Made by a program: the position numbers and the translations under genes. 13,987 bases of DNA from a virus (Duplodnaviria; Heunggongvirae; Uroviricota; Caudoviricetes): IMG/VR virus record IMGVR_UViG_2548876869_000004, positions 1-13,987 of that record; one strand, written 5' to 3'. Position 1 is the first letter of the stretch; every line of letters starts with the position of its first letter. Shown here in pieces: positions 1 through 13,987 of the stretch. The notes under the pieces were generated by a model that saw only the letters and a list, made by a program, of their open reading frames with translations, did no database searches and was not told where the DNA came from.

Positions 1-45
1 TAACACGAAATCCTGCGAACTGGCAAAATGTAAGTGAATAAAAGT

Positions 46-85
46 AAAAACCCCGTTTGTTGGCAGCAAGCGGGGTTTTGTTTTT
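46..85 (+). terminator. Rho-independent terminator-like hairpin
   Basis: Arms aaaaccccg (47-55) and cggggtttt (71-79) are complementary around a 15-nt loop, followed by T-tract ttttgttttt (76-85). It sits just after an in-frame TAA at 1-3. The A-tract/T-tract symmetry could allow bidirectional function. Confidence 0.4.
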
Positions 86-150
86 ATGGCAGTAAGCTAT
101 GGGAGGCTGCCTTGATTGATTTTAGCAAACTGATTAGGGAGTTGCGACTC

Positions 151-246
151 ATGATTAGTCAATTACCAAACTGGAAATTTTTGCTGGTCTGGAGCATCCC
201 TTTTTTATGGGTAGTATCCCAGTTAATTGTGGCAATTAAGGGGTAG
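151..246 (+). CDS. Very short hydrophobic ORF (31 aa), putative single-TM peptide
   Basis: ATG at 151 preceded by aggga; product MISQLPNWKFLLVWSIPFLWVVSQLIVAIKG has one hydrophobic stretch with a C-terminal lysine. First of four tightly packed mini-ORFs. No recognisable homology. Confidence 0.2.
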   Translation: MISQLPNWKFLLVWSIPFLWVVSQLIVAIKG

Positions 247-248
247 CT

Positions 249-380
249 ATGTCAGACAAACTCATAACGCCGGCAAAGGTCCTGTGTGTGATTGTCGGTA
301 TTTCATTTTCACTAATGCTGGTTGCTCTTTTTCTGTCCCTCGCCTGGGTGATGTTGTCTTCGTCGGGGCTGCTGGGGTGA
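249..380 (+). CDS. Very short hydrophobic ORF (43 aa), putative membrane peptide
   Basis: ATG at 249 with aagggg 6 nt upstream; product MSDKLITPAKVLCVIVGISFSLMLVALFLSLAWVMLSSSGLLG. Its stop overlaps the next ORF's GTG as GTGA (377-380). Confidence 0.25.
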   Translation: MSDKLITPAKVLCVIVGISFSLMLVALFLSLAWVMLSSSGLLG

Positions 381-499
381 CAGTGACTGATGACATCAGC
401 AGAGCGCTGGCTTTTGCTATTAAGTGGGTGGCTGTTGGTATTGCTGTGTCTCCGATGCTGTATGGGCTGGCAAAACTGGTCATTGCGCTGAAATCGTGA
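377..499 (+). CDS. Very short hydrophobic ORF (about 40 aa), paralogue of the 511-597 ORF
   Basis: GTG at 377 (alternative GTG at 383); product ...TDDISRALAFAIKWVAVGIAVSPMLYGLAKLVIALKS. Both peptide and DNA resemble the next mini-ORF (RALAFAIKWVAVGIAV versus [16 protein letters not shown]). Confidence 0.25.
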   Translation: MTVTDDISRALAFAIKWVAVGIAVSPMLYGLAKLVIALKS

Positions 500-510
500 A
501 CTTTAAAAAG

Positions 511-597
511 ATGAGTGCTGAACTTATTCGGGCAATGGCATTTGCCATTCGTATTGTGGCCATTGCTGTTCTGGTCTGGACAATCCGTTGGTGGTGA
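511..597 (+). CDS. Very short hydrophobic ORF (28 aa), paralogue of the 377-499 ORF
   Basis: ATG at 511; product [28 protein letters not shown]. Stop TGA 595-597 lies 1 nt before the Rz ATG at 599. Confidence 0.2.
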
Positions 598-598
598 T

Positions 599-1066
599 AT
601 GAACCGTGTTCTGTGTGTGGTGATTATTGTCCTGCTGGTAGCCTGTGGTGTGCTTAGTCTGGGGCTGAATCATTACCGTGATAACGCCATTACCTACAAA
701 GCCCAGCGCGACAAAAATGTCAGAGAACTGAAGCTGGCGAACGCGGCAATTACTGACATGCAGATGCGTCAGCGTGATGTTGCTGCGCTCGATGCAAAAT
801 ACACGAAGGAGTTAGCTGATGCGAAAGCTGAAAATGATGCTCTTCGTCGCAAGCTTGATAATGGTGGCAGGGTGCTCGTCAAAGGAAAATGCCCTGTGCC
901 ATCCTCAGCCGAAACCTCCAGCGCCTCCGGCATGGGCAATGATGCCACCGTCGAACTCTCTCCAGTTGCTGGACGAAACGTTCTCGGTATCCGGGACGGA
1001 ATTATCCGCGACCAAACAGCACTGAGAACGCTTCAGGAATACATCAGGACGCAATGCCTTCGATGA
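599..1066 (+). CDS. Rz: Rz i-spanin (inner-membrane spanin subunit)
   Basis: From ATG 599: [83 protein letters not shown]... Long stretches match lambda Rz as I recall it ([58 protein letters not shown]). N-terminal TM helix plus coiled-coil periplasmic domain. The ORF-track start at 515 is an upstream in-frame extension. Confidence 0.9.
819..1025 (+). CDS. Rz1: Rz1 o-spanin (outer-membrane lipoprotein), embedded in Rz in the +1 frame
   Basis: [44 protein letters not shown]... has a lipobox (MVAG|C) and a proline-rich stretch, like lambda Rz1 (MLKLKMML...VVGC...PPPPPAW). It lies wholly inside Rz in another frame, the classic embedded spanin arrangement. Confidence 0.85.
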
Positions 1067-1239
1067 TAGCGATAATTTTACTCATCATCCTTCACATCTG
1101 GCTCTGTAGACAGGGTGGTGATCACTTCTGGAGTGAATCCAGATTTAACATCTCATTGCTGATGCTTGATATTGAGCATCTTGCGCGCGGTAAGGGGCTG
1201 CGTTGAGATAAGAGCCAGTCATCACAAACACCAGGATTT

Positions 1240-1266
1240 AGCCTCGCATTCGCGGGGCTTTTTATT
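1240..1266 (+). terminator. Rho-independent terminator-like hairpin downstream of Rz
   Basis: Stem agcctcgc (1240-1247) pairs with gcggggct (1252-1259), with one G-U wobble, around loop attc; followed by ctttttatt T-tract (to 1266). Confidence 0.45.
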
Positions 1267-1284
1267 GCAACAAAGGTAAAGACG

Positions 1285-1572
1285 ATGGATGAAGAATATC
1301 GTAAAGACCTGCAATTGTGGTTTGGCCTGACGCATGCGTCGTTCTGCGTGATGCCGAGAGTATTCATGGAGGCTATGCCGCAAGAATGGCAAGAGAAGAT
1401 GGCGCAGTTGCTTTTTGAGTATGGCGACACGATCAAAACGGATGTCTGCGGAGTTCACTGCTGTTTCGTTACTGCCAAAGACGGCAACAACCGCTTTATG
1501 AGGATGCCAGAAGATATTCTGAACTATCGTCATCCCCGGCGTGAGTTCATCGAATCATTTCTGAAGAAGTAG
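1285..1572 (+). CDS. Hypothetical small cysteine-containing protein (95 aa)
   Basis: ATG 1285; product MDEEYRKDLQLWFGLTHASFCVMPRVFMEAMPQEWQEKMAQLLFEYGDTIKTDVCGVHCCFVTAKDGNNRFMRMPEDILNYRHPRREFIESFLKK has a natural mixed-charge composition and a C-x2-H-C-C cluster. It occupies the lambda bor position but is not Bor-like and is on the opposite strand to lambda bor. I cannot assign a family from memory. Confidence 0.6.
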   Translation: MDEEYRKDLQLWFGLTHASFCVMPRVFMEAMPQEWQEKMAQLLFEYGDTIKTDVCGVHCCFVTAKDGNNRFMRMPEDILNYRHPRREFIESFLKK

Positions 1573-1629
1573 CCATTACAAAGTCTATCTGCGGGGGGCT
1601 TGATAAAGGTGCTTTCACCTCGCTTAGCA

Positions 1630-1638
1630 TGGTATGTT
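1630..1638 (+). promoter_or_regulatory. Possible extended -10 promoter element (TGgTATGTT)
   Basis: tggtatgtt at 1630-1638 resembles an extended -10 (TGnTATAAT) about 28 nt upstream of the ATG at 1666. No convincing -35. Weak, sequence-only call. Confidence 0.2.
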
Positions 1639-1665
1639 CTGACTACCAACTTTTTGGGAGGACAC

Positions 1666-1890
1666 ATGGAACTGATAAATGGACGGCCAGGCAGAGATTT
1701 TATAGTGGGAACATATACCTACTCAGAAATTAAAGATCTTAACTTCATGGCTAAGGAAGAGAAAAGAGCTCGTGAAGAGCTAAAGCATCGGGGTTACGAA
1801 TTGGCGTATATCAAGGCGGACTCTGAATGTAACGGGATGTTTGTCAGGGCGTACCGGGTCTATACTGACAAAGCGCCATCTAATGTCTAA
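1666..1890 (+). CDS. Hypothetical small protein (74 aa), AT-rich cargo gene
   Basis: ATG 1666 with GGAGG at 1657-1661; product MELINGRPGRDFIVGTYTYSEIKDLNFMAKEEKRAREELKHRGYELAYIKADSECNGMFVRAYRVYTDKAPSNV. Visibly lower GC than the structural genes. The TTG-initiated extension from 1600 in the ORF track is unlikely. Confidence 0.55.
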   Translation: MELINGRPGRDFIVGTYTYSEIKDLNFMAKEEKRAREELKHRGYELAYIKADSECNGMFVRAYRVYTDKAPSNV

Positions 1891-1933
1891 ATATACCTCG
1901 GGCGGTTTTTTACGTTCATTACCGTACGCAATT

Positions 1934-1996
1934 ACAGCAGGCATTCATTGAGTGCCTGTGATAATGATTTATCAACGTGCTTGCAAACGGTATTCT
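1934..1996 (+). promoter_or_regulatory. Putative promoter/operator region upstream of the 134-aa gene
   Basis: Inverted repeat cagcaggca (1934-1942) / tgcctgtg (1951-1958) with one bulge, then ttatca (1969-1974), a 16-nt spacer and tattct (1991-1996) as sigma70-like -35/-10, about 30 nt upstream of the GTG at 2026. Confidence 0.25.
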
Positions 1997-2025
1997 AGAC
2001 CTCCAATTATCCTAAGGAGGTTTTT

Positions 2026-2430
2026 GTGGTTAAAAATTTAGAATACATGAAGGGGATGCTTGAGGTATTTTTGAAAGCGAAAACTCCCTTTATATCTACA
2101 AAAGACTTAGCTAATGCGGGGTACGATATCTGCTCGAATGAAGGGATGTTTCATTATCTACTTCTTATTGAGCAAGGTTATATCAGTAATAAAGATCTAA
2201 TAACGGATGACATAACTAAACTGGGCTACATGCGCCATTGTGGCCATATGCTAGATATGGGTACCGACGTGCGACTATCTGCGCAGGGACAAGAATTCGC
2301 CCAGGCATTAAATGAACCTACGGTTTTTGAGAAATTAAAGTCAATGAGCGATGCCCCTTTGAGTACAATCAAAGATGTTGGGCTGGAGTTAACGAAGGCC
2401 TATTTAAAGAAGAAATTTGGCCTCGAGTAA
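2026..2430 (+). CDS. Hypothetical protein (134 aa), AT-rich cargo gene immediately upstream of cos
   Basis: GTG start 2026 with strong SD AAGGAGG (2014-2020); product MVKNLEYMKGMLEVFLKAKTPFISTKDLANAGYDICSNEGMFHYLLLIEQGYISNKD...KKKFGLE. Clearly AT-rich relative to flanking phage genes. Family unassigned; a small helical or winged-helix-type fold is speculation only. Confidence 0.65.
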   Translation: MVKNLEYMKGMLEVFLKAKTPFISTKDLANAGYDICSNEGMFHYLLLIEQGYISNKDLITDDITKLGYMRHCGHMLDMGTDVRLSAQGQEFAQALNEPTVFEKLKSMSDAPLSTIKDVGLELTKAYLKKKFGLE

Positions 2431-2612
2431 AATTTCTACCCTCACGAGTTAAGTTGTTTTGTGATGGTTATTCGCAATGAATATCTTTAGCCACTGGCAT
2501 TTGCTGGTGGTTTTTTTATGCGCATCCCTCGCGCACCACAAAGGGAGTCTTTCAGTAGTGATTCTGAATATCAGTGTGATAAACGTATTTGACAATCATT
2601 ATCATTTTTGGT

Positions 2613-2683
2613 GGGTCCTTTCCGGCGATCCGACAGGTTACGGGGCGGCGACCTCGCGGTTTTTCACTATTTATGAAAATTTT
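2613..2683 (+). other. cos: cos site: cosQ-proximal region, cosN (12-nt cohesive end GGGCGGCGACCT at 2643-2654) and start of cosB
   Basis: gggtcctttccggcgatccgacaggttacg|gggcggcgacct|cgcggtttttcactatttatgaaaatttt is near-identical to the phage lambda right-end/left-end junction as I recall it (...GGGTCCTTTCCGGTGATCCGACAGGTTACG + GGGCGGCGACCTCGCGGGTTTTCGCTATTTATGAAAATTTT). It sits about 180 bp upstream of Nu1, as in lambda. Confidence 0.85.
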
Positions 2684-2750
2684 TCAGGGAAAATCGTGTC
2701 GGTACTTCTCGAATATAACTTTTTGTTTTTTTTAATATTGCATCCGTAAA

Positions 2751-2805
2751 GGTCCGACATGAAAGTGTCCGAAAATGCCTTTTTCTGGCGTTTTCATGTC
2801 GGGCC
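2751..2805. promoter_or_regulatory. Inverted repeat within cosB, candidate terminase small-subunit binding sites
   Basis: Arm ggtccgacatgaaa (2751-2764) and arm tttcatgtcgggcc (2792-2805) are reverse complements at 13 of 14 positions, separated by 27 bp, just upstream of the Nu1 start at 2831. Lambda R2/R1 are similarly inverted. Confidence 0.4.
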
Positions 2806-2830
2806 TTGTATTTGATAATGGGTTGTTTTC

Positions 2831-3379
2831 ATGAAGGTTAATAAAAAGAGGCTTGCCGAAATTTTCAACGTGGACCCGCGGACGATTGAACGCTGGCAGT
2901 CTCAGGGACTCCCTTGCGCCTCCAAAGGTAGTAAGGGCATTGAATCTGTATTTGATACTGCCATGGTAATTCAGTGGTATGCGCAGAGGGAAACTGATAT
3001 CGAAAACGAAAAGCTCCGCAAAGAACTGGACGATTTGCGTGCGGCAGCGGAGTCAGATTTACAACCCGGCACCATTGACTATGAACGCTACCGGCTCACA
3101 AAAGCGCAGGCAGATGCGCAGGAACTGAAAAATGCCCGTGAAGACGGAGTAGTGCTGGAAACTGAACTGTTTACCTTCATTCTGCAACGTGTGGCACAGG
3201 AGATTTCGGGGATACTTGTGCGTGTGCCGTTGACATTACAGCGTAAATATCCGGACATTTCACCATCACACCTTGATGTGGTGAAAACTGAAATCGCGAA
3301 AGCCTCCAATGTTTCAGCTAAGGCCGGTGAAAACGTGGGCGGGTGGATCGATGATTTCAGACGCGCAGAAGGCAGCTAA
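2831..3379 (+). CDS. nu1: Terminase small subunit (gpNu1)
   Basis: [28 protein letters not shown]...[60 protein letters not shown] closely parallels lambda Nu1 (MEVNKKQLADIF...[48 protein letters not shown]). N-terminal winged HTH. Directly downstream of cos. Confidence 0.95.
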
Positions 3380-5279
3380 TGCAGCCGGTGCGATAGCAAC
3401 AGGGCTTTTATCTCTCATTATTCCTGTTCCACTGACGACAGTTCAGTGGGCCAATAAACATTATTACCTTCCTAAAGAGTCGTCTTATACCCCGGGGCGG
3501 TGGGAAACACTGCCGTTTCAGGTTGGCATCATGAACTGTATGGGCAACGATTTGATTCGCACGGTTAACCTGATTAAATCTGCCCGTGTTGGTTATACAA
3601 AGATGTTGCTGGGAGTGGAGGCTTATTTTATTGAGCATAAATCACGCAACAGCCTTCTTTTTCAGCCCACGGACTCAGCTGCTGAAGATTTTATGAAATC
3701 TCATGTTGAGCCAACGATAAGGGAGGTTCCTGCGTTGCTGGAGCTGGCTCCATGGTTCGGAAGAAAACACCGCGATAATACGCTCACCCTGAAGCGTTTT
3801 TCCTCCGGTGTGGGTTTCTGGTGTCTGGGGGGAGCGGCAGCAAAAAACTACCGTGAAAAATCCGTGGATGTGGTCTGTTATGACGAGCTTTCCTCGTTCG
3901 AACCGGATGTTGAAAAAGAGGGTTCGCCAACCCTGCTGGGGGATAAACGTATTGAGGGCTCTGTATGGCCCAAATCCATTCGCGGCTCGACGCCTAAAAT
4001 CAAAGGCTCCTGCCAGATCGAAAAAGCCGCTAACGAGTCGGCACACTTCATGCGTTTTTATGTGCCCTGTCCGCACTGTGGGGAGGAGCAGTATCTGAAA
4101 TTTGGCGATGAGTCCACGCCTTTTGGGCTTAAATGGGAGAAGGACAGCCCCGAAAGCGTTTTCTACCTCTGTGAGCATCATGGCTGCGTGATCCATCAGT
4201 CTGAACTGGACCAGAGTAACGGGCGGTGGATCTGTGAAAACACGGGCATGTGGACCCGTGACGGTCTGACGTTTTTCAGCGCTGCGGGTAATGAAATTCC
4301 GCCGCCGCGCTCCATCACTTTCCATATCTGGACGGCGTACAGTCCGTTCACCACCTGGGTACAGATTGTCTATGACTGGCTGGATGCACTGAAAGATCCC
4401 AACGGCCTGAAAACCTTTGTGAACACCACGCTGGGCGAGACCTGGGAAGAGGCTGTGGGCGAAAAACTCGATCACCAGATACTGATGGATAAGGTTGTGC
4501 GTTACACGGCGGCGGTGCCTGCCCGGGTGGTTTATCTGACGGCGGGCATTGACTCGCAGCGAAACCGTTTTGAGATGTATGTCTGGGGATGGGCTCCGGG
4601 AGAGGAAGCCTTTCTGGTGGATAAAATCATCATTATGGGGCGTCCCGATGAGGAAGAGACGCTGTTACGTGTGGATGCGGCGATCAACAAAAAATACCGC
4701 CATGCAGACGGAACCGAAATGACTATTTCCCGTGTCTGCTGGGACATCGGGGGGATCGATGGCGAAATCGTTTATCAGAGGTCAAAAAAACACGGTGTTT
4801 TCCGGGTGCTGCCGGTAAAAGGCGCATCTGTCTATGGCAAGCCGGTGATCACCATGCCAAAAACCCGCAATCAGCGGGGCGTGTATCTGTGTGAAGTGGG
4901 GACGGACACCGCAAAAGAAATTCTCTATGCCCGTATGAAAGCCGATCCCACGCCTGCGGATGAAGCCACGTCGTATGCCATCCGTTTTCCTGATGATCCG
5001 GAGATTTTTTCGCAGACAGAGGCGCAGCAACTGGTCGCGGAAGAGCTTGTGGAGAAGTGGGAAAAAGGAAAGATGCGTCTGCTGTGGGATAACAAAAAGC
5101 GGCGTAACGAAGCGCTGGACTGCCTGGTGTATGCCTACGCGGCATTACGTGTGTCCGTGCAACGCTGGCAGCTTGATCTGGCTGTACTGGCAAAATCCCG
5201 GGAAGAAGAGACGACCCGGCCAACCCTTAAAGAACTGGCAGCGAAGCTGTCCGGAGGAGTGAATGGTTACAGTCGCTGA
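3351..5279 (+). CDS. A: Terminase large subunit (gpA)
   Basis: From ATG 3351 (overlapping the Nu1 3' end as in lambda): MISDAQK...[25 protein letters not shown]...[22 protein letters not shown]...[14 protein letters not shown]...KRRNEALDC. Recognisable lambda gpA motifs throughout. The ORF-track start at 3309 is an upstream extension. Confidence 0.95.
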
Positions 5280-5469
5280 ACTGCAGGCGCTGCGTCAGGC
5301 GCGCCTTGATTTATTAACCGGTAAACGGGTGGTGTCTGTCCAGAAAGATGGTCGCAGAATTGAATATACGGCGGCTTCTCTGGATGAGCTTAACCGGGCG
5401 ATCAATGATGCGGAGTCGGTACTGGGGACAACCCGGCGTCGCCGTCGTCCGCTGGGAGTGAGGTTATGA
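5263..5469 (+). CDS. W: Head-tail joining / head completion protein gpW
   Basis: 68 aa; LLTGKRVVSVQKDGRRIEYTAASLDEL resembles lambda gpW ([27 protein letters not shown]). Start overlaps the A stop; stop overlaps the B start (ATGA). Confidence 0.9.
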   Translation: MVTVAELQALRQARLDLLTGKRVVSVQKDGRRIEYTAASLDELNRAINDAESVLGTTRRRRRPLGVRL

Positions 5470-7058
5470 AACGAACGCCTGTCCTGATTGATGTGAACGG
5501 CGTTCCGCTTCGTGAGAGTCTCAGCTACAACGGGGGCGGTGCAGGATTTGGCGGGCAAATGGCTGAGTGGTTGCCACCGGCGCAGAGTGCCGATGCGGCC
5601 CTGCTGCCCGCGTTGCGTCTGGGGAATGCCCGGGCAGATGATCTGGTGCGCAATAACGGAATAGCGGCTAATGCGGTGGCTCTGCATAAGGATCACATTG
5701 TCGGGCATATGTTTCTGATCAGCTACCGTCCGAACTGGCGCTGGCTGGGGATGCGGGAGACCGCAGCAAAAAGCTTTGTCGATGAGGTGGAGGCGGCCTG
5801 GTCGGAATACGCCGAAGGGATGTTTGGCGAGATCGACGTGGAAGGAAAACGCACGTTCACGGAATTTATCCGTGAAGGTGTGGGCGTTCATGCGTTTAAC
5901 GGCGAAATCTTTGTGCAGCCGGTCTGGGATACGGAAACCACGCAGTTATTCCGTACGCGTTTTAAAGCCGTGAGTCCGAAACGGGTGGACACGCCTGGAC
6001 ACGGTATGGGGAACCGTTTTCTGCGGGCCGGTGTGGAGGTCGATCGATATGGCCGTGCCGTCGCGTACCATATTTGTGAGGATGATTTTCCGTTCTCTGG
6101 TAGTGGACGATGGGAACGGATCCCGCGTGAACTTCCCACCGGGCGTCCGGCTATGCTGCATATTTTCGAGCCGGTGGAGGACGGGCAGACCCGTGGGGCT
6201 AATCAGTTTTACAGCGTCATGGAACGGCTGAAGATGCTCGATTCCCTGCAGGCAACACAGCTTCAGTCGGCCATAGTGAAGGCGATGTATGCAGCGACGA
6301 TTGAAAGTGAACTTGATACCGAAAAGGCCTTTGAATATATCGCCGGCGCGCCACAGGAGCAGAAGGATAATCCGCTTATTAATATTCTGGAGAAGTTCTC
6401 CAGCTGGTATGACACGAATCACGTGACGCTGGGCGGTGTCAAAATTCCGCACCTTTTCCCTGGTGATGATCTGAAACTGCAGACAGCGCAGGATTCAGAC
6501 AATGGATTTTCGGCGCTTGAACAGGCGCTGCTGCGGTATATCGCCGCCGGTCTTGGCGTTTCCTACGAACAGTTGTCCCGTGATTACTCGAAGGTCAGTT
6601 ACTCAAGTGCCCGCGCCTCCGCCAATGAGTCGTGGCGCTATTTTATGGGGCGGCGAAAATTTATTGCGGCCCGACTGGCCACGCAGATGTTTTCCTGCTG
6701 GCTGGAAGAGGCACTTCTTCGGGGGATTATTCGTCCGCCACGGGCACGTTTTGATTTTTATCAGGCGCGATCAGCCTGGTCACGGGCAGAGTGGATTGGT
6801 GCCGGAAGAATGGCCATTGACGGGCTCAAGGAAGTCCAGGAATCAGTGATGCGCATTGAGGCCGGACTGAGCACGTATGAGAAAGAGCTGGCGCTGATGG
6901 GCGAGGATTATCAGGACATTTTCCGCCAGCAGGTCAGGGAATCTGCAGAGCGGGAAAAAGCCGGACTCTCACGCCCGGTGTGGATAGCGCAGGCGTATCA
7001 GCAGCAGATAGCGGAGAGTCGCAGGCCGGAAGAGGAGACAACACCACGTGAGACGTAA
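5466..7058 (+). CDS. B: Portal protein (gpB)
   Basis: 530 aa with extended lambda gpB-like blocks: GNARADDLVRNNG, FEPVEDGQTRGANQFYSVMERLKMLDSLQATQLQSAIVKAMYAATIESELDT, LLRYIAAGLGVSYEQLSRDYS, WIGAGRMAIDGLKEVQESVMRIEAGLSTYEKE. Confidence 0.95.
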   Translation: MKRTPVLIDVNGVPLRESLSYNGGGAGFGGQMAEWLPPAQSADAALLPALRLGNARADDLVRNNGIAANAVALHKDHIVGHMFLISYRPNWRWLGMRETAAKSFVDEVEAAWSEYAEGMFGEIDVEGKRTFTEFIREGVGVHAFNGEIFVQPVWDTETTQLFRTRFKAVSPKRVDTPGHGMGNRFLRAGVEVDRYGRAVAYHICEDDFPFSGSGRWERIPRELPTGRPAMLHIFEPVEDGQTRGANQFYSVMERLKMLDSLQATQLQSAIVKAMYAATIESELDTEKAFEYIAGAPQEQKDNPLINILEKFSSWYDTNHVTLGGVKIPHLFPGDDLKLQTAQDSDNGFSALEQALLRYIAAGLGVSYEQLSRDYSKVSYSSARASANESWRYFMGRRKFIAARLATQMFSCWLEEALLRGIIRPPRARFDFYQARSAWSRAEWIGAGRMAIDGLKEVQESVMRIEAGLSTYEKELALMGEDYQDIFRQQVRESAEREKAGLSRPVWIAQAYQQQIAESRRPEEETTPRET

Positions 7059-8553
7059 TCTTTCACACATTATTGCCGCAGCATTCAATGAACCGCTGCT
7101 TCTGGAGCCCGCCTATGCGCGGGTTTTCTTTTGCGCGCTCGGGCGCGAGATGGGGGCAGCAAGTCTTTCGGTACCACAACAACAGGTACAGCTTGATGCT
7201 CCCGGAATGCTGGCTGAAACGGACGAGTACATGGCCGGAGGTAAACGACCGGCCCGTGTTTACCGGGTGGTGAACGGTATTGCGGTACTGCCGGTGACCG
7301 GCACGCTGGTGCACCGGCTGGGCGGTATGCGGCCATTTTCCGGAATGACAGGCTATGACGGCATTGTCGCCTGTCTTCAGCAGGCAATGGCAGATAGCCA
7401 GGTGCGGGGCGTACTGCTGGACATTGACAGTCCGGGCGGGCAGGCCGCCGGCGCGTTTGACTGCGCTGACATGATTTACCGCCTCCGTCAGCAGAAGCCG
7501 GTCTGGGCACTGTGCAATGACACGGCCTGTTCTGCAGCCATGCTGCTGGCGTCGGCCTGCTCCCGACGGCTGGTTACTCAGACATCCCGTATCGGCTCCA
7601 TTGGCGTGATGATGAGCCATGTCAGCTATGCCGGTCATCTGGCGCAGGCCGGGGTGGATATCACGCTGATTTATGCCGGGGCGCACAAGGTGGATGGCAA
7701 TCAGTTTGAAGCCTTACCGGCAGAGGTGCGTCAGGACATGCAGCAGCGGGTTGATGCGGCGCACCGGATGTTTGCCGAAAAAGTGGCGATGTATACGGGG
7801 CTGTCTGTGGAAGCTGTCACGGGGACAGAGGCTGCCGTTTTTGAAGGTCAGTCCGCTATTAAGGCCGGACTGGCGGATGAATTAATCAATGCGTCGGATG
7901 CCATCAGCGTGATGGCTGCGGCGCTGAACACTCATGATACAGGAGGCACTATGCCGCAATTAACTGCAACGGAAGCTGCCGCGCAGGAGAACCAGCGAGT
8001 GATGGGGATCCTGACGTGTCAGGAAGCGAAAGGACGTGAACAGCTTGCCACGATGCTGGCAGGACAACAGGGCATGAGCATTGAACAGGCCCGGGCGATT
8101 CTGGCCGCGGCGGCACCACAGCAGCCGGTGGCATCCGCGCAGAGTGAAGCCGATCGCATTATGGCGTGTGAAGAAGCGAAAGGTCGTGAACAACTGGCGG
8201 CAACGCTGGCGGCGATGCCGGAGATGACGGTGGAAAAAGCCCGCCCGATCTTGGCTGCCTCACCGCAGGCGAATGCCGGGCCCTCACTTCGTGATCAGAT
8301 CATGGCCCTGGATGAGGCAAAAGGGGCAGAAGCGCAGGCTGAAAAACTGGCGGCCTGCCCGGGAATGACCGTGGAGAACGCCCGGGCTGTGCTGGCTGCG
8401 GGATCAGGTAAGGCCGAACCGGTCTCTGCATCCACAACCGCCCTGTTTGAACATTTCATGGCGAATCATTCACCGGCAGCGGTGCGGGGTGGCGTGTCAC
8501 AGACGTCAGCAGACGGTGATGCGGACGTGAAAATGCTCATGGCCATGCCATGA
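7048..8553 (+). CDS. C: Head maturation protease / scaffold fusion (gpC-like, S49/ClpP-type) with Nu3-like C-terminal region
   Basis: GTG start 7048 overlapping the B stop; AAFNEPLLLEPAYARVFFCAL, VNGIAVLPVTG, MTGYDGIV, DSPGG.AAGAFDCADMI, KPVWAL, SRRLVTQTSRIGSIGVMMSH, ITLIYAGAHKVDGN, YTGLSV, GLADEL all parallel lambda gpC. The C-terminal part holds three tandem copies of a Nu3-like motif. Confidence 0.9.
   Translation: MRRNLSHIIAAAFNEPLLLEPAYARVFFCALGREMGAASLSVPQQQVQLDAPGMLAETDEYMAGGKRPARVYRVVNGIAVLPVTGTLVHRLGGMRPFSGMTGYDGIVACLQQAMADSQVRGVLLDIDSPGGQAAGAFDCADMIYRLRQQKPVWALCNDTACSAAMLLASACSRRLVTQTSRIGSIGVMMSHVSYAGHLAQAGVDITLIYAGAHKVDGNQFEALPAEVRQDMQQRVDAAHRMFAEKVAMYTGLSVEAVTGTEAAVFEGQSAIKAGLADELINASDAISVMAAALNTHDTGGTMPQLTATEAAAQENQRVMGILTCQEAKGREQLATMLAGQQGMSIEQARAILAAAAPQQPVASAQSEADRIMACEEAKGREQLAATLAAMPEMTVEKARPILAASPQANAGPSLRDQIMALDEAKGAEAQAEKLAACPGMTVENARAVLAAGSGKAEPVSASTTALFEHFMANHSPAAVRGGVSQTSADGDADVKMLMAMP
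7951..8553 (+). CDS. nu3: Putative Nu3-like scaffolding protein from an internal in-frame start within C
   Basis: In-frame ATG at 7951 preceded by AGGAGG (7941-7946); downstream ENQRVMGILTCQEAKGREQ matches the lambda Nu3 N-terminal region (AENSRIMGILNCEEAHGREEQ). A nested scaffold gene is established for lambda C/Nu3; here it is inferred from the RBS plus homology. Confidence 0.5.
   Translation: MPQLTATEAAAQENQRVMGILTCQEAKGREQLATMLAGQQGMSIEQARAILAAAAPQQPVASAQSEADRIMACEEAKGREQLAATLAAMPEMTVEKARPILAASPQANAGPSLRDQIMALDEAKGAEAQAEKLAACPGMTVENARAVLAAGSGKAEPVSASTTALFEHFMANHSPAAVRGGVSQTSADGDADVKMLMAMP
7996..8420 (+). repeat. Intragenic tandem triplication (about 141-159 nt units) encoding three Nu3-like scaffold repeats
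   Basis: Three successive units: RVMGILTCQEAKGREQLATMLAGQQGMSIEQARAILAAAAPQQ / RIMACEEAKGREQLAATLAAMPEMTVEKARPILAASPQAN / QIMALDEAKGAEAQAEKLAACPGMTVENARAVLAAGSGKA, starting at about 7996, 8155 and 8296. The DNA is diverged but clearly related (for example gaagcgaaagg(a/t)cgtgaaca). Confidence 0.6.
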
Positions 8554-8589
8554 AGTCAGTGCTGACCATCAATATGAGGTTTTAACAAA

Positions 8590-8937
8590 ATGGTGACGAA
8601 AACCATCACTGAACAGCGTGCGGAAGTACGTATTTTTGCTGGTAATGATCCGGCTCATACCGCCACAGGCAGCAGCGGGATTTCTTCTGCAACACCGGCT
8701 CTGACGCCCCTGATGCTGGATGAAGCCACCGGGAAACTGGTGGTCTGGGATGGACAGAAAGCCGGTAGTGCGGTTGGCATACTGGTACTGCCGCTTGAAG
8801 GCACAGAGACGGTGCTGACCTATTACAAGTCGGGGACCTTTGCGACGGAGGCAATCCGCTGGCCTGACAGTGTGGATGAACACAAAAAGGCAAATGCCTT
8901 TGCCGGCACAGCCCTGAGTCACGCGGCTCTGCCGTAA
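8590..8937 (+). CDS. D: Head decoration protein (gpD)
   Basis: 115 aa; NDPAHTAT, TPLMLD, KLVVWDG, AVGILV, YYKSGTF, KKANAFAGTA mirror lambda gpD (SDPAHTATA, MTPLMLD, KLVAWDG, AVGILA, FYKSGTF, KKRTAFAGTA). Confidence 0.9.
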   Translation: MVTKTITEQRAEVRIFAGNDPAHTATGSSGISSATPALTPLMLDEATGKLVVWDGQKAGSAVGILVLPLEGTETVLTYYKSGTFATEAIRWPDSVDEHKKANAFAGTALSHAALP

Positions 8938-8945
8938 CACGTTAT

Positions 8946-8965
8946 CAGGCCACCATGGTGGCCTG
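8946..8965. repeat. Perfect 20-bp palindrome (caggccacca|tggtggcctg) in the D-E intergenic region
   Basis: The sequence at 8946-8965 is its own reverse complement. It lies between the D stop (8937) and the E start (8995). Confidence 0.6.
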
Positions 8966-8994
8966 ACTGATTTCTGAATGAAAGGAACTGATTT

Positions 8995-10023
8995 ATGGGA
9001 TTGTTTACGACCCGCCAGTTACTCGGTTATACCGAACAAAAAGTTAAATTCCGTGCGCTGTTTCTGGAGCTGTTTTTCCGCCGTACGGTGAATTTCCACA
9101 CCGAAGAGGTGATGCTGGACAAAATTACCGGAAAAACGCCGGTGGCGGCCTATGTCTCCCCGATCGTTGAAGGAAAAGTGCTGCGCCATCGTGGTGGTGA
9201 AACCCGCGTGTTGCGTCCGGGCTACGTCAAGCCGAAACACGAATTTAATTACCAGCAGGCGGTTGAGCGCCTTCCTGGTGAAGATCCGGCTCAGCTGAAC
9301 GACCCGGCCTACCGTCGTCTGCGTATCATTACCGATAACCTCAAACAGGAAGAGCACGCCATTGTCCAGGTGGAAGAAATGCAGGCGGTGAATGCCGTGC
9401 TGTATGGCAAATACACCATGGAAGGGGATCAGTTTGATACTGTCGAGGTGGATTTCGGGCGCTCTGAAGGAAATAACATTGAGCAGGCTGACGGTAAAAA
9501 ATGGTCTGAGCAGGACCGTGATACGTTTGATCCGACGCATGATATTGACCTCTACTGCGATCAGGCCAGCGGCCTTGTGAATATCGCCATTATGGACGGT
9601 ACGGTCTGGCGTCTGCTGAATGGCTTTAAGCTGTTCCGCGAAAAACTGGATACCCGTCGCGGCTCAAATTCACAACTCGAAACGGCAGTGAAAGATCTGG
9701 GCGCAGTGGTGTCCTTCAAGGGGTATTACGGCGATCTGGCCATTGTGGTGGCGAAAACGTCTTATGTGGCAGAGGACGGTACCGAAAAACGTTATCTGCC
9801 GGAGGGCATGCTGGTGCTGGGGAATACGGCGGCAGAGGGGATTCGTTGCTATGGTGCCATTAAGGATGCACAGGCGTTGTCTGAAGGAGTGGTGGCTTCT
9901 TCCCGTTACCCGAAACACTGGCTGACCGTGGGCGATCCGTCCTGTGAATTCACCATGACGCAGTCCGCTCCGCTGATGGTGCTGCCGGATCCGGATGAGT
10001 TTGTGGTGGTACAGGTGAAATAA
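8995..10023 (+). CDS. E: Major capsid protein (gpE)
   Basis: 342 aa; YVSPIV.G.V.R.RGG, PGYVKPKHE, RRLP.EDP, DPAYRR.RII, VEEMQAV.AVL.GKYTM.G, KLDTRRGSNS.LETAVKDLG, YPK.W.T.GDP..EFTM.QSAPLM all match lambda gpE. Confidence 0.95.
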   Translation: MGLFTTRQLLGYTEQKVKFRALFLELFFRRTVNFHTEEVMLDKITGKTPVAAYVSPIVEGKVLRHRGGETRVLRPGYVKPKHEFNYQQAVERLPGEDPAQLNDPAYRRLRIITDNLKQEEHAIVQVEEMQAVNAVLYGKYTMEGDQFDTVEVDFGRSEGNNIEQADGKKWSEQDRDTFDPTHDIDLYCDQASGLVNIAIMDGTVWRLLNGFKLFREKLDTRRGSNSQLETAVKDLGAVVSFKGYYGDLAIVVAKTSYVAEDGTEKRYLPEGMLVLGNTAAEGIRCYGAIKDAQALSEGVVASSRYPKHWLTVGDPSCEFTMTQSAPLMVLPDPDEFVVVQVK

Positions 10024-10030
10024 TCCGTGA

Positions 10031-10060
10031 GCGGGGGCGAAATGCCCCCGTGTCTTTTTT
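10031..10060 (+). terminator. GC-rich hairpin plus T-tract immediately after the major capsid gene
   Basis: cgggggc (10032-10038) pairs with gcccccg (10044-10050) around loop gaaat, followed by tgtctttttt (10051-10060). Lies between the E stop and the FI RBS. Confidence 0.4.
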
Positions 10061-10074
10061 CACAGGAGGCTGAG

Positions 10075-10458
10075 ATGGCAACAAAAGAAGAAAATCTGAA
10101 TCGTCTTCGTCAACTGGCTGGCCTGCTGGGGCGCGAGGCGGATATGTCGGGGAGTGCTGCGGATATTGCTCAACGTGTGTCTGAGTGGGAAGAGGAGCTT
10201 GCTGTTTCCCCGGAGGGCATTATGCACTCTGATGAGAGCGGGGCTGATCAAAATCACACAGACGATGGTGAGCAGTTGAACAACACGGATGCTCCGGATG
10301 ATGTTAAAGCCGTCCGGGTACGGAAGTGCCTGCAAGTAATGGGGTATTGCCCGGAGACAGGTCGTCCCGTTGAGCTGGCGTTACGGGGTATGCGTGTTCT
10401 GGTGCCATCATCACTGGCAACGGCCATGATACAGCACGGAACGGCTGAATATGCGTGA
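10075..10458 (+). CDS. FI: DNA-packaging accessory protein gpFI-like
   Basis: ATG 10075 preceded by AGGAGG; MATKEENLNRLRQLAGLLGREADMSGSAADIAQRVSEWEEEL... has a highly acidic linker region and sits in the lambda FI position between E and FII. Similarity to lambda FI is modest. The ORF-track start at 10027 lies inside the upstream hairpin. Confidence 0.8.
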   Translation: MATKEENLNRLRQLAGLLGREADMSGSAADIAQRVSEWEEELAVSPEGIMHSDESGADQNHTDDGEQLNNTDAPDDVKAVRVRKCLQVMGYCPETGRPVELALRGMRVLVPSSLATAMIQHGTAEYA

Positions 10459-10804
10459 TTTTCAGAATGCCTTTGATGCTGCCCTCGCCGGGGTAGACAG
10501 TACGATCGTTGAAGTGATGGGGCTCTGTGCGCAGTTCACCTCGGGGGCACAGTGTGGCAGCGAAGTTCAGGGGGTTTTTGACGATCCGGAGTCGCTGGGG
10601 TTTGCCGGTGGCGGGGTCCGTATTGAAGGAAGCAGCCCGTCATTATTTGTGCGGACGGATACGGTTCGTGCCGTGCGGCGTGGTGACACGCTGACCATTA
10701 ATGGTGAGATATTCTGGGTGGATCGTGTTTCTCCGGATGACGGGGGCAGCTGTTATCTCTGGCTCAACCGTGGTCAACCACCCGCAGTTAACCGGCGACG
10801 ATAA
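10451..10804 (+). CDS. FII: Head-tail connector protein gpFII
   Basis: 117 aa; GVFDDPE, GGGVRIEGSSPSLFVRTD.VR..RRGDTLTI, FWVDRVSPDDGGSCYLWL.RG.PPAVNRRR is near-identical to the lambda gpFII C-terminal half. Confidence 0.9.
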   Translation: MRDFQNAFDAALAGVDSTIVEVMGLCAQFTSGAQCGSEVQGVFDDPESLGFAGGGVRIEGSSPSLFVRTDTVRAVRRGDTLTINGEIFWVDRVSPDDGGSCYLWLNRGQPPAVNRRR

Positions 10805-10819
10805 ACGCAGGGTGAAATT

Positions 10820-11353
10820 ATGGCGATAAAAGGGCTTGATCAGGCGATTGACAATCTGAGCCGGGTTCGTAAAAACGCCATTCCGGCGGCTTCAGCAATG
10901 GCCATTAACCGCGTGGCCACAACGGCGATTAATCAGTCTTCATCACAGGTTGCCCGGGAGACAAAGGTTCGCCGGAAACTGGTTAAGGAACGGTCCAGAC
11001 TGAAACGGGCGACGGTCAGAAATCCGAATGCCAGAATTATCGTTAACCGCGGTGATCTCCCTGTGATTAAGCTGGGGATCAGGATGCTGGGGCGTCGCCC
11101 GAACAGCATACTTAAAGCCGGTCAGCATCGGTATCAGCGGGCATTTATTCAGCGATTAAAAAATGGTCGCTGGCATGTCATGCAGCGTGTGGCCGGGAAA
11201 AACCGTTACCCCATTGATGTGGTGAAAATCCCGATGGCGGCCCCACTGAAACAGGCATTTGATGAGAATGTTGACCGTATCCGGCGTGAACGCCTGCCTA
11301 AAGAACTGGCATACGCGCTGAAACAACAACTGAGGATTGCAATAAAACGATGA
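10820..11353 (+). CDS. Z: Tail completion protein gpZ
   Basis: 177 aa; MAIKGLDQAIDNLSR, AMAINRVA, SQVARETKVRRKLVKER.RLKRATV.NP.ARI.VNRGDLPVIKLG, QRLKNGRWHVMQRVAGKNRYPIDVVKIPMA, RIRRERLPKEL match lambda gpZ. Confidence 0.9.
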   Translation: MAIKGLDQAIDNLSRVRKNAIPAASAMAINRVATTAINQSSSQVARETKVRRKLVKERSRLKRATVRNPNARIIVNRGDLPVIKLGIRMLGRRPNSILKAGQHRYQRAFIQRLKNGRWHVMQRVAGKNRYPIDVVKIPMAAPLKQAFDENVDRIRRERLPKELAYALKQQLRIAIKR

Positions 11354-11745
11354 AACACACTGACATTCGTGCCGCAGTGCTGGATGCACTCGAGCAGCAT
11401 GAACACGGGGCGACGCTGTTTGATGGTCGCCCCGTTGTTTTTGACGAAGAGGATTTTCCTGCGATCGCGGTTTATCTGACGGATGCAGAGTATACCGGTG
11501 AAGAGCTGGATGCAGATACCTGGCGGGCCACGCTGCATATTGAGGTGTTTTTACCGGCACAGGTACCGGATTCAGAGCTTGAACAGTGGATGGAAAGCCG
11601 GATTTACCCGGCGATGACCGCGATCCCGGCACTGGCAGGACTGATTACCACGATGGTTACGCAGGGCTATGAGTATCGTCGTGATGACGATATGGCGTTA
11701 TGGAGTTCTGCAGATCTGACTTATTCCATTACATACGAGATGTGA
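11350..11745 (+). CDS. U: Tail terminator protein gpU
   Basis: 131 aa; [90 protein letters not shown] match lambda gpU. Start overlaps the Z stop (ATGA). Confidence 0.9.
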
Positions 11746-11752
11746 GGACGAT

Positions 11753-12505
11753 ATGGCAACACCAAATCCCCTTGAGCCGGTAAAAGGTGCCGGTACCACT
11801 CTGTGGGTTTACAACGGCAAGGGTGATGCTTATGCAAACCCGTTGTCAGACGATGACTGGCAGCGACTGGCTAAGGTGAAGGATCTGACGCCGGGCGAGA
11901 TGACGGCAGAATCCTACGATGATAACTACCTGGATGATGAAGACGCGGACTGGACCGCGACCGGGCAGGGGCAGAAATCTGCAGGTGATACCAGTTTTAC
12001 GCTGGCCTGGAAACCGGGAGAGGAAGGCCAGAAAGGGCTTATAGGCTGGTTTGAAAGCGGCGATGTCCGGGCCTATAAAATCCGTTTTCCGAATGGCACG
12101 GTGGATGTGTTTCGTGGCTGGGTCAGCAGTATCGGTAAGGCCGTGACGGCGAAAGAAGTGATCACCCGCACGGTGAAAGTCACTAACGTGGGTAAACCTT
12201 CTGTAGCGGAAGAACGCAGCAAAATTACGCCGGTCAGTGCGATTAAGGTGACGCCGACATCCGGTACGGTGGCAAAAGGGAAAACAACCACCCTGACGGT
12301 TTCTTTTGAGCCGGAAAGTGCAACCGACAAGACGTTCAGAGCGGTTTCCGCCGATCCGTCGAAAGCCACCATTAGTGTGAAAGATATGACAATTACGGTA
12401 AACGGCGTGGCGACAGGTAAGGTGCAGATCCCTGTGGTGAGCGGAAATGGTCAGTTCGCCGCAGTGGCTGAAGTCACCGTTACTGAAGCGGGCGCTGCAG
12501 GGTAA
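11753..12505 (+). CDS. V: Major tail tube protein (gpV) with C-terminal Ig-like domain
   Basis: 250 aa; [113 protein letters not shown] match lambda gpV. Confidence 0.95.
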
Positions 12506-12518
12506 ACGGAGGTAATAC

Positions 12519-12821
12519 ATGTTTCTGAAAACAGAACAATTTGAATATAACGGTGTGTCTGTCACGCTTTCCGAATTGTCTGCGCTGCAGCGTATCGAGC
12601 ATCTTGCCCTCCTGAAACGGCGTGCAGAACAGGCAGAATCCTGCGGCAACCTGCTCACCACCTGGCCTGCCGATGCCATTGCCCGGGCGGAAGACGTGGT
12701 GTTGTGCCTGTCCGGGATGATCGAAGCTGTTCGTCCGGATACTGATATTACTGAAGTGGCGAAAAATAACACGCTGACTGATGATGATTTTTCTGCGGGA
12801 AAGTCTTCGACGGCGAGCTGA
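12519..12821 (+). CDS. G: Tail assembly chaperone gpG (zero-frame product)
   Basis: 100 aa; MFLKTEQFEYNGVSVTLSELSALQRIEHLALLKRRAEQAES matches the lambda gpG N-terminus (MFLKTESFEHNGVTVTLSELSALQRIEHLALMKRQAEQAES). It is shorter than lambda G as I recall it (about 140 aa). Confidence 0.85.
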   Translation: MFLKTEQFEYNGVSVTLSELSALQRIEHLALLKRRAEQAESCGNLLTTWPADAIARAEDVVLCLSGMIEAVRPDTDITEVAKNNTLTDDDFSAGKSSTAS

Positions 12822-13261
12822 ACTTTGCCCTCAGACTGGCGCGTGAGATGGGGAGACCCGACTGGCGCGCCATGCTTGCCGGGATGACATCCACCGAATA
12901 TGCCGACTGGCACCGTTTTTACCGCACGCATTATTTTCAGGATACCCAGCTGGATATGCATTTTTCCGGGCTGACGTACGCTGTACTCAGCCTGTTTTTT
13001 TGCGATCCGGATATGCATCCCTCTGATTTCAGTCTGCTTGTCCCCCGGCATGAGGAAGAGCAGGTGGAGAGGCCGGATGAGGACAAAATGCTGATGCAGA
13101 AAGCGGCAGGACTTGCCGGAGGCGTCCGGTTCGGTGGGGACGGAGGGCGCGATATTTTATCGTCTGCGGATGTGGCGGATGTCATGGTGGATGATGCCGC
13201 ATTAATGATGGCTTCAGCGGGGATTCCGGGAGGTGCGAGATATGTCCCAGCCGGTTGGTGA
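12519..13261 (+). CDS. G-T: gpG-T tail assembly chaperone fusion produced by a programmed -1 ribosomal frameshift
   Basis: Slippery heptamer G GGA AAG at 12797-12803 is in the correct zero-frame register. After the -1 slip the reading continues ...ELNFALRLAREMGRPDWRAMLAGMTSTEYADWHRFYRTHYFQD..., closely matching lambda gpT (MGRPDWRAMLAGMSSTEYADWHRFY.THYF), ending at TGA 13259-13261. Confidence 0.8.
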
Positions 13262-13987
13262 TCTTGTTATTGACCTGAGTCTGGATGCTGTCCGTTTCGA
13301 TGAGCAGATGAGCCGGGTAAGGCGTCATTTTTCAGGCCTGGATACCGACGCCAGAAAAACCGCCAGTGCTGTTGAACAGGGCCTGAGCCGCCAGGCGCTG
13401 GCTGCACAAAAAGCCGGGATTTCCGTCGGGCAGTATAAAGCGGCCATGCGAACCCTGCCCGCACAGTTTACGGATATCGCCACGCAGCTTGCAGGTGGTC
13501 AGAATCCCTGGCTGATCCTGCTGCAACAGGGCGGTCAGGTGAAGGACTCCTTCGGCGGGATGATCCCCATGTTCAGGGGGCTCGCCGGTGCGATCACCCT
13601 GCCGATGGTCGGGGTCACCTCGCTGGCGGTGGCGACAGGTGCGCTGGTGTACGCCTGGTACCAGGGAGATTCCACGCTTTCAGCGTTTAATAAAACCCTG
13701 GTTCTTTCCGGTAATCAGTCCGGACTGACTGCCGATCGTATGCTGACTCTCTCAAGAGCCGGGCAGGCAGCAGGGCTGACGTTTAACCAGGCGAGAGAGT
13801 CACTGGCAGCCCTGGTGAATGCCGGTGTGCGTGGTGGTGAACAGTTTGATGCCATCAACCAGAGTGTCGCGCGTTTTGCGTCTGCATCCGGTGTGGAGGT
13901 GGATAAAGTCGCTGAAGCCTTCGGGAAGCTGACCACTGACCCGACATCGGGACTGATGGCGATGGCGCGCCAGTTCCGTAACGTGAC
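13242..13987 (+). CDS. H: Tail tape measure protein gpH (N-terminal part; runs off the 3' end of the window)
   Basis: ATG 13242 with GGGAGG upstream; MSQPVGDLVIDLSLDAVRFDEQMSRVRRHFSG...QALAAQKAGISVGQYKAAMR.LPAQFTD.ATQLAGGQ.PWLILLQQGGQVKDSFGGMIPMFRGLAGAITLPMVG is near-identical to the lambda gpH N-terminus. No stop before the window end. Confidence 0.9.
   Translation, partial: MSQPVGDLVIDLSLDAVRFDEQMSRVRRHFSGLDTDARKTASAVEQGLSRQALAAQKAGISVGQYKAAMRTLPAQFTDIATQLAGGQNPWLILLQQGGQVKDSFGGMIPMFRGLAGAITLPMVGVTSLAVATGALVYAWYQGDSTLSAFNKTLVLSGNQSGLTADRMLTLSRAGQAAGLTFNQARESLAALVNAGVRGGEQFDAINQSVARFASASGVEVDKVAEAFGKLTTDPTSGLMAMARQFRNV

Follow-up and report, generated by a model that had tools for sequence, protein, structure and literature searches.

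The viral sequence analysed here (IMG/VR record IMGVR_UViG_2548876869_000004, Caudoviricetes; positions 1 to 13,987, the full 13,987 nucleotides (nt), hereafter the window) contains a 501-amino-acid (aa) open reading frame (ORF) of the lambda C type, in which a motif that occurs once in the lambda C/Nu3 protein seemed to be present three times. Are these copies genuine repeats, how did they arise, and what could they do during head assembly? The account that best explains the locus as a whole, which we regard as very probable, is that the ORF and a gene nested in it are phage-21-like genes 5 and 6, that the repeats are the Tri boxes of phage 21, that they go back to an old in-frame triplication, and that each unit would act as a helix-loop-helix contact module.

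Three repeat units and the Tri boxes of phage 21

The translation of the 501-aa ORF contains three tandem, diverged units of about 40 aa, separated by short linkers rich in Pro, Ser, and Gln. The envelopes found with a hidden Markov model (HMM) of the unit span aa 316–358, 369–407, and 416–455, all on the plus strand, which correspond to nt 7993–8121 for unit 1 (R1, ENQRVMGILTCQEAKGREQLATMLAGQQGMSIEQARAILAAAAPQ), 8152–8268 for unit 2 (R2, EADRIMACEEAKGREQLAATLAAMPEMTVEKARPILAASPQ), and 8293–8412 for unit 3 (R3, LRDQIMALDEAKGAEAQAEKLAACPGMTVENARAVLAAGSGK). On the same strand, linker 1 (QPVASAQSEA) occupies nt 8122–8151 and linker 2 (ANAGPSLR) nt 8269–8292, both as read from the translation, and unit 3 is followed by an unrepeated C-terminal tail (AEPVSASTTALFEHFMANHSPAAVRGG...MLMAMP; 8413–8550) whose homologue in lambda is the tail behind the single unit. 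An initial annotation of this DNA had claimed three diverged tandem copies within the gpC gene at 7996–8420; the interval proved accurate, being off by three bases at the 5′ end, and self-alignment of the units bears the claim out.

In local BLOSUM62 alignments compared with 2000 composition-preserving shuffles (null scores of 25–26 ± 5), R1 and R2 scored 105 (null 25.8 ± 5.0, z = 16), R1 and R3 scored 85 (z = 12.4), and R2 and R3 scored 102 (z = 14.5); none of the 2000 shuffles reached the observed scores, which rules out chance similarity of the units. Sixteen columns are invariant in all three units, and the unit consensus reads I/V-M-x-x-x-E-A-K-G-R-E-x-L-A-x-x-L-A-x-x-P-G-M-T/S-V-E-x-A-R/K-x-I-L-A-A-x-P-Q/K. 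At the DNA level, Tandem Repeats Finder (TRF) reported no tandem repeat in the region, a direct-repeat search returned only seeds of 15–19 nt that lie about 140–160 nt apart, and nucleotide identity between the units is 53–67%; with TRF blank and the direct-repeat search lacking a tandem repeat, the repetition is visible in the protein only. Searches of Pfam and NCBIfam found no family that covers the repeat region.

The same arrangement has been on record for phage 21. The GenBank entry M81255 ("Bacteriophage 21 head gene operon"), which dates from the 1990s and reportedly accompanied a paper by Smith and Feiss in Gene in 1993, annotates gene 6 as a nested coding sequence (5475–6077) with its own ribosome-binding site, and marks within it three repeat_region features, each with the note "function unknown; putative". 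Shifted by +2476 into window coordinates, the Tri1 box (5542–5645) falls on 8018–8121 inside unit 1 (101 of 104 nt identical), the Tri box (5682–5792) on 8158–8268 inside unit 2 (107/111 nt), and the Tri3 box (5823–5936) on 8299–8412 inside unit 3 (106/114 nt), with nucleotide identities of 91–97% over the boxes. By this match in position and sequence, the three repeats are the previously annotated Tri boxes, and the triplication was already known. Genes 5 and 6 of phage 21 (M81255 and the complete genome, OL657228) resemble the locus in the nested start, in the three units at equivalent coordinates, and in the flanking order of head genes; they differ from it by point differences only, such as K versus N in unit 2 and I versus V in unit 1, and in that the window copy appears to sit in an Escherichia coli chromosome. 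The announcement of the phage 21 genome names M81255 as the earlier phage 21 fragment (PMC9119081).

Origin of the units and their copy-number alleles

The lambda protein shows where the additional units stand. Lambda gpC (J02459) contains exactly one unit, at aa 359–400, as the initial annotation had stated, with a motif that matches it, and a search at a very lax threshold ruled out a second one. We take unit 1 to be the orthologue of this single unit on the basis of their alignment: among the three units it has the lowest proportion of synonymous differences (pS, 0.51) to the lambda unit, it has a 3-aa MGI insertion in common with it, and the flanks are homologous. One alignment pairs the lambda unit with R1, and another pairs unit 3 and tail with the lambda unit and tail (49% identity over 49 aa). 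In general, lambda C/Nu3 and the window ORF are alike in the S49 domain, in the scaffold started internally in frame, in the position between the portal and the decoration and capsid genes, and in the unit followed by a tail; they differ in that lambda has one unit and the window three, and in that lambda gpC carries a 34-aa linker rich in Ser, Thr, and Ala that the window ORF does not have.

The duplication is old. In codon-aligned Nei-Gojobori counts between the units, pS is saturated at 0.66–0.70, the proportion of nonsynonymous differences (pN) is 0.22–0.41, and the ratio of nonsynonymous to synonymous divergence (dN/dS) is 0.15–0.37. Given saturated synonymous sites and a low dN/dS, the units are old, and each has been kept as protein.

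We then compared the units with the wider family. A three-unit profile run against 1.84 billion representative proteins (E ≤ 1e-3) matched 437 proteins, and among the best 150 of these matches, 57 proteins have at least 350 aa, and in 55 of them a single unit is present, 39–182 aa (median 52) from the C terminus. The core conserved in the relatives is E-A-K-G-R-E...L-A...P-G-M-T/S...A-K/R-x-x-L-A-A-x-P-K/Q. Across this alignment, no other element in the scaffold part of lambda-type S49 protease-scaffold proteins is as conserved as the unit, and none but the unit is strongly conserved. Since nearly all of these diverse relatives have one unit, one unit is taken as the ancestral norm; the ancestral and usual state is, on this comparison, one unit followed by a tail of about 40–80 aa. 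Three-unit forms occur in a few diverged lineages (homologues P0121, P0123, and P0124), and independent recent duplications are found in homologues P0129, P0133, and P0171. Among the three-unit lineages the first units are mutually orthologous (65–79% identity), and the second unit of P0121 matches R2 at 70% identity; therefore, the triplication is older than the split of at least the P0121 lineage. As judged from these sequences, the two further units of the phage 21 lineage arose long ago by in-frame tandem duplication.

The number of units nevertheless varies among close relatives. In the 120 closest protein clusters, the length classes were explained by the unit HMM and by inspection. Proteins of 451/452 aa, which include an O157:H7 protein, have two units, an R1/R2 hybrid and R3; in those of 472 aa, R1 is joined to the second half of R2 and followed by R3; in those of 482 aa, R2 is internally truncated by 19 aa, leaving about 2.5 units; those of 501 aa, which include phage 21 and the window, have three units; those of 551 aa have four, including an R3/R2 hybrid; and one protein of 657 aa carries a 156-aa duplication. 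The 482-aa class is the commonest (66/120 clusters), and the index of the collection lists a single sequence of this class in 3592 blocks; this allele is found in complete-looking head-tail operons, beside a 342-aa capsid protein. The recombinant alleles (P0016, P0086, P0090, P0116, P0002, and P0001) represent 2, about 2.5, 3, 4, and about 5.3 units, and all allele junctions are in register, as unequal recombination between units would give. In the phage collection, 19 records reached at least 80% coverage; the 18 of them that span the whole query, all from isolated phages, are of three-unit length. Thus, the proposal of an old duplication that has been kept stands as regards age and retention as protein, and is qualified by the natural alleles of two, about 2.5, and four units.

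In the homologues P0085 (577 aa) and P0088 (721 aa), the gp5 sequence breaks off immediately behind unit 3 ("...AAGSG") and gives way to unrelated sequence that is Gly/His-rich or resembles tail fibres; both seem to be products of prophage deletions by which the protease-scaffold gene became fused to a distal gene.

Nested scaffold gene and the surrounding head operon

The repeats lie in a gene 5 homologue of the lambda C type (7048–8553, plus strand, GTG start), which joins an S49 prohead protease to a C-terminal scaffold region. A megablast search of phage records aligned the whole ORF, at 96% nucleotide identity, with gene 5 of phage 21 (M81255 4572–6077) and with 21-like phages; the ORF also matches PHROG 53, "head maturation protease" (E 7e-228). 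Its Peptidase_S49 catalytic domain (aa 146–293; 7483–7926, plus strand) was found with Pfam PF01343 (E 4.4e-36), and a sequence search of the Protein Data Bank (PDB) matched aa 77–289 to the solved SppA structures 3rst and 4kwb (E about 1e-17). Lambda gpC is 53% identical to the ORF over 412 aligned positions (E 5e-141).

Within this ORF, gene 6, the Nu3 analogue, is predicted as a nested, in-frame gene for a 200-aa scaffolding protein (7951–8553, plus strand; M81255 5475–6077). Its ATG at 7951, which had been proposed as an internal start, has an AGGAGG ribosome-binding site (7941–7946, plus strand) 4 nt upstream and is the annotated gene 6 start in both phage 21 records, which have a ribosome-binding site at the equivalent place. 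OL657228 labels the gene pair "capsid protease/scaffolding protein" and "scaffolding protein", and PHROG 8399, "head scaffolding protein", matches gp6 in three stretches. By these signals, the gene 6 product would be translated in frame from the internal start, and the protease (gp5) and the scaffold (gp6) would therefore end in the same three units and tail.

Whether the repeats lengthen the scaffold, as had been claimed, depends on which lambda start is taken. At 501 aa, gp5 is 62 aa longer than lambda gpC (439 aa), in line with the claim, whereas the annotated scaffolds are nearly equal (200 aa for gp6 and 201 aa for lambda Nu3) because the annotated Nu3 start of lambda (5132) sits inside the protease domain, 70 codons further upstream than the homologous start. 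The gene 6 start aligns with lambda Met309 (lambda 5342), and AGGAGG lies just upstream in both; all that precedes the annotated lambda start is a weak GGAG at a distance of 16 nt. Counted from the homologous starts, the lambda scaffold has 131 aa and that of the window 200 aa. A PHROG "head scaffolding protein" profile has 131 positions, equal to lambda gpC from Met309 to the end, and the note on the Nu3 coding sequence in the phage 434 record begins with "real Nu3 start ...". The legacy 201-aa annotation of lambda Nu3 may not be the real product.

The window as a whole holds a late operon of the lambda type, comprising Rz, Nu1, gpA, W, the portal gene, the 7048–8553 ORF, D, E, an FI homologue, and tail genes, with the lambda order of terminase, W, portal, C/Nu3, D, and E. 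The Rz lysis gene lies at 515–1066; the Nu1-type small terminase gene at 2831–3379 (Pfam match), next to the gpA-type large terminase gene (likewise a Pfam match) and the W homologue; the portal gene (gp4, the lambda B homologue, 61% identical) at 5466–7058; the D-type decoration gene at 8590–8937 (Pfam HDPD match within the operon); and the E-type major capsid gene at 8995–10023. The major capsid protein has 342 aa in the window and 341 aa in lambda, with 61% identity.

The gene 6 segment (603 nt, 7951–8553) was found in 1865 of 5426 complete E. coli genomes, in up to five copies per genome, when at least 80% of the query had to be covered; of 30 rows sampled, 29 matched all three units over the full length without gaps. 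E. coli strain B19374 (NZ_CP142915) has a copy with 100% identity. As the segment is so widespread in E. coli and has an identical copy in this strain, the window is probably an E. coli chromosomal prophage. As a discovery the triplication carries little weight: the phage 21 entry for the head operon has listed it for decades, and about one in three complete E. coli genomes contains the gene.

Two other parts of the window stood out. The tail assembly chaperone of the lambda G type encoded at 12519–12821 has only 100 aa: compared with lambda G (140 aa) and with a near-identical homologue of 143 aa in another locus (L004), it lacks 43 internal aa through an in-frame deletion, and Pfam Phage_TAC_2 matches it in two pieces; given this deletion, the prophage may be defective for tail assembly. 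Between the Rz and Nu1 genes (1600–2749) are three ORFs of 96, 134, and 90 aa, none with a Pfam match, and L004 has different genes at the equivalent place, including one for a TonB_C-domain protein.

Predicted role of the unit and what its copy number means

What, then, could the unit do? An AlphaFold2 (AF2) model of gp6 shows each unit as a long helix followed by a short one, with a loop at P-G-M-T between them. Neither linker is helical: helices at residues 44–54 and 66–87 flank linker 1, and the predicted local distance difference test score (pLDDT) is below 50 at gp6 residues 104–109 in linker 2, as it is in the last 23 residues. In lambda, one study reported that Nu3 interacts with E, C, and B as well as with other Nu3 molecules, the Nu3-E interaction coming from yeast two-hybrid (PMC3224144).

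We infer that each unit is a conditionally folding helix-loop-helix that would touch a partner weakly and briefly within the shell as it assembles; the major capsid protein is the likeliest partner, and other scaffold molecules may be further ones. Through such contacts, scaffold and shell would be made to assemble together and the protease would be brought into the procapsid, after which the scaffold would be degraded. Three units would raise valency and reach and leave the function unchanged, which would explain why alleles of 2, 2.5, 3, and 4 units could arise by unequal in-register recombination and be found in nature. Since the unit is the only strongly conserved scaffold element and is common to the protease and the scaffold via nested translation, the most economical reading of the model and the alignments is that it may be a module by which both are anchored to the inner face of the shell as it grows, or are bound to one another. 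A role as a capsid- or scaffold-binding helix-loop-helix is thus likely, as far as the model can tell.

Several observations weigh against this role. The AF2 model is a weak one, computed from a single sequence with no alignment (mean pLDDT 63; predicted template modelling score, pTM, 0.30); Foldseek found no match of the gp6 model in the PDB at E ≤ 0.001, and the PDB sequence search matched the repeat region to nothing, the SppA matches being confined to the protease domain. Lambda gpNu3 is said to be called intrinsically disordered in the title of a paper. Given the lack of a PDB match and this description, the helices of the unit may form only on binding. The unit is also not at the extreme C terminus: a 46-aa tail follows unit 3, and this tail could be the actual capsid-binding element. 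Furthermore, the commonest allele has a broken unit 2, and three intact units are therefore not required. Finally, M81255 itself gives the function of the Tri boxes as unknown.

Two established systems help to place the proposed module. Scaffolding proteins of the P22 gp8 type bind coat protein through a C-terminal helix-turn-helix domain, and the window protein may resemble them in having a small predicted helix-loop-helix in a flexible, elongated scaffold that leaves the shell after assembly. However, the PDB sequence search and Foldseek found no sequence or fold match; the gp8 element is terminal and single whereas that of the window is internal and repeated, and the P22 scaffold is recycled whereas a scaffold of the window type is removed by proteolysis. 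In herpesviruses, UL26 and UL26.5 are translated in a nested, in-frame manner, so that protease and scaffold share one C-terminal capsid-targeting region. The likeness to genes 5 and 6 lies in nested protease-scaffold genes with a common C terminus; the protease fold and sequence are unrelated to those of the window, and to our knowledge no repeated unit occurs in UL26/UL26.5.

Among the alternatives, the one that fares best, and which we consider possible but clearly second to capsid contact, is that the units are modules for self-association (dimer or oligomer formation) of the scaffold, three of which would strengthen a scaffold-scaffold lattice. Nu3-Nu3 interaction and dimerisation have been reported for lambda (PMC3224144), and predicted amphipathic helical hairpins are typical oligomerisation elements. 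However, the same study reported Nu3-E interaction, and binding to itself and binding to the capsid protein are not mutually exclusive. Less likely still, the units could bind the portal protein (gp4) and recruit it with the protease into an initiator complex. Incorporation of B into lambda procapsids needs Nu3, C-B and Nu3-B interactions are listed as well (PMC3224144), and the portal is 61% identical between lambda and the window; yet where a scaffold is needed in many copies per shell, its sole conserved element would hardly be reserved for one dodecamer.

It is very improbable that the similarity reflects chance or low complexity in an Ala-rich region, or that the units are functionless spacers. 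The region is indeed rich in Ala, Glu, and Gln, and unit 2 is truncated in the commonest allele, but no shuffle reached the observed scores (z = 12–16), 16 columns are invariant, and the motif is strongly conserved in very diverse homologues. That the Tri boxes instead act as DNA or RNA, for example as protein-binding sites or translational signals with the protein similarity secondary, can hardly be credited even though GenBank marks them as DNA repeat_region features and OL657228 has pattern-matched CII-site annotations in the gene: the units are only 53–67% identical in nucleotides, TRF saw no tandem repeat, the unit is conserved as protein in 437 clusters, and a DNA-level function is ruled out by saturated synonymous sites combined with conserved amino acids (dN/dS as above).

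Returning to the unit as a contact module of the scaffold, does the number of units matter for the head? The initial annotation had suggested that scaffold length can affect procapsid assembly, and here we found nothing that ties unit number to capsid geometry. The equal-length capsid proteins of lambda and the window (341 and 342 aa), together with the natural alleles of one to four units, argue that unit number does not set capsid geometry. A more tentative idea, to which we give a modest chance, is that unit number is a naturally tunable parameter of lambda-type scaffolds, such that the alleles could differ in the rate or fidelity of assembly or in the amount of protease packaged; if so, they would be a ready-made series for how scaffold valency controls shell assembly. 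The modest value of the locus lies in a strongly conserved lambda-type scaffold unit with natural alleles of 1, 2, about 2.5, 3, and 4 units, which, with a capsid protein of equal length wherever it was checked (lambda, the window, and a locus with the 482-aa allele), offer a convenient series for studying unit binding and valency in assembly.

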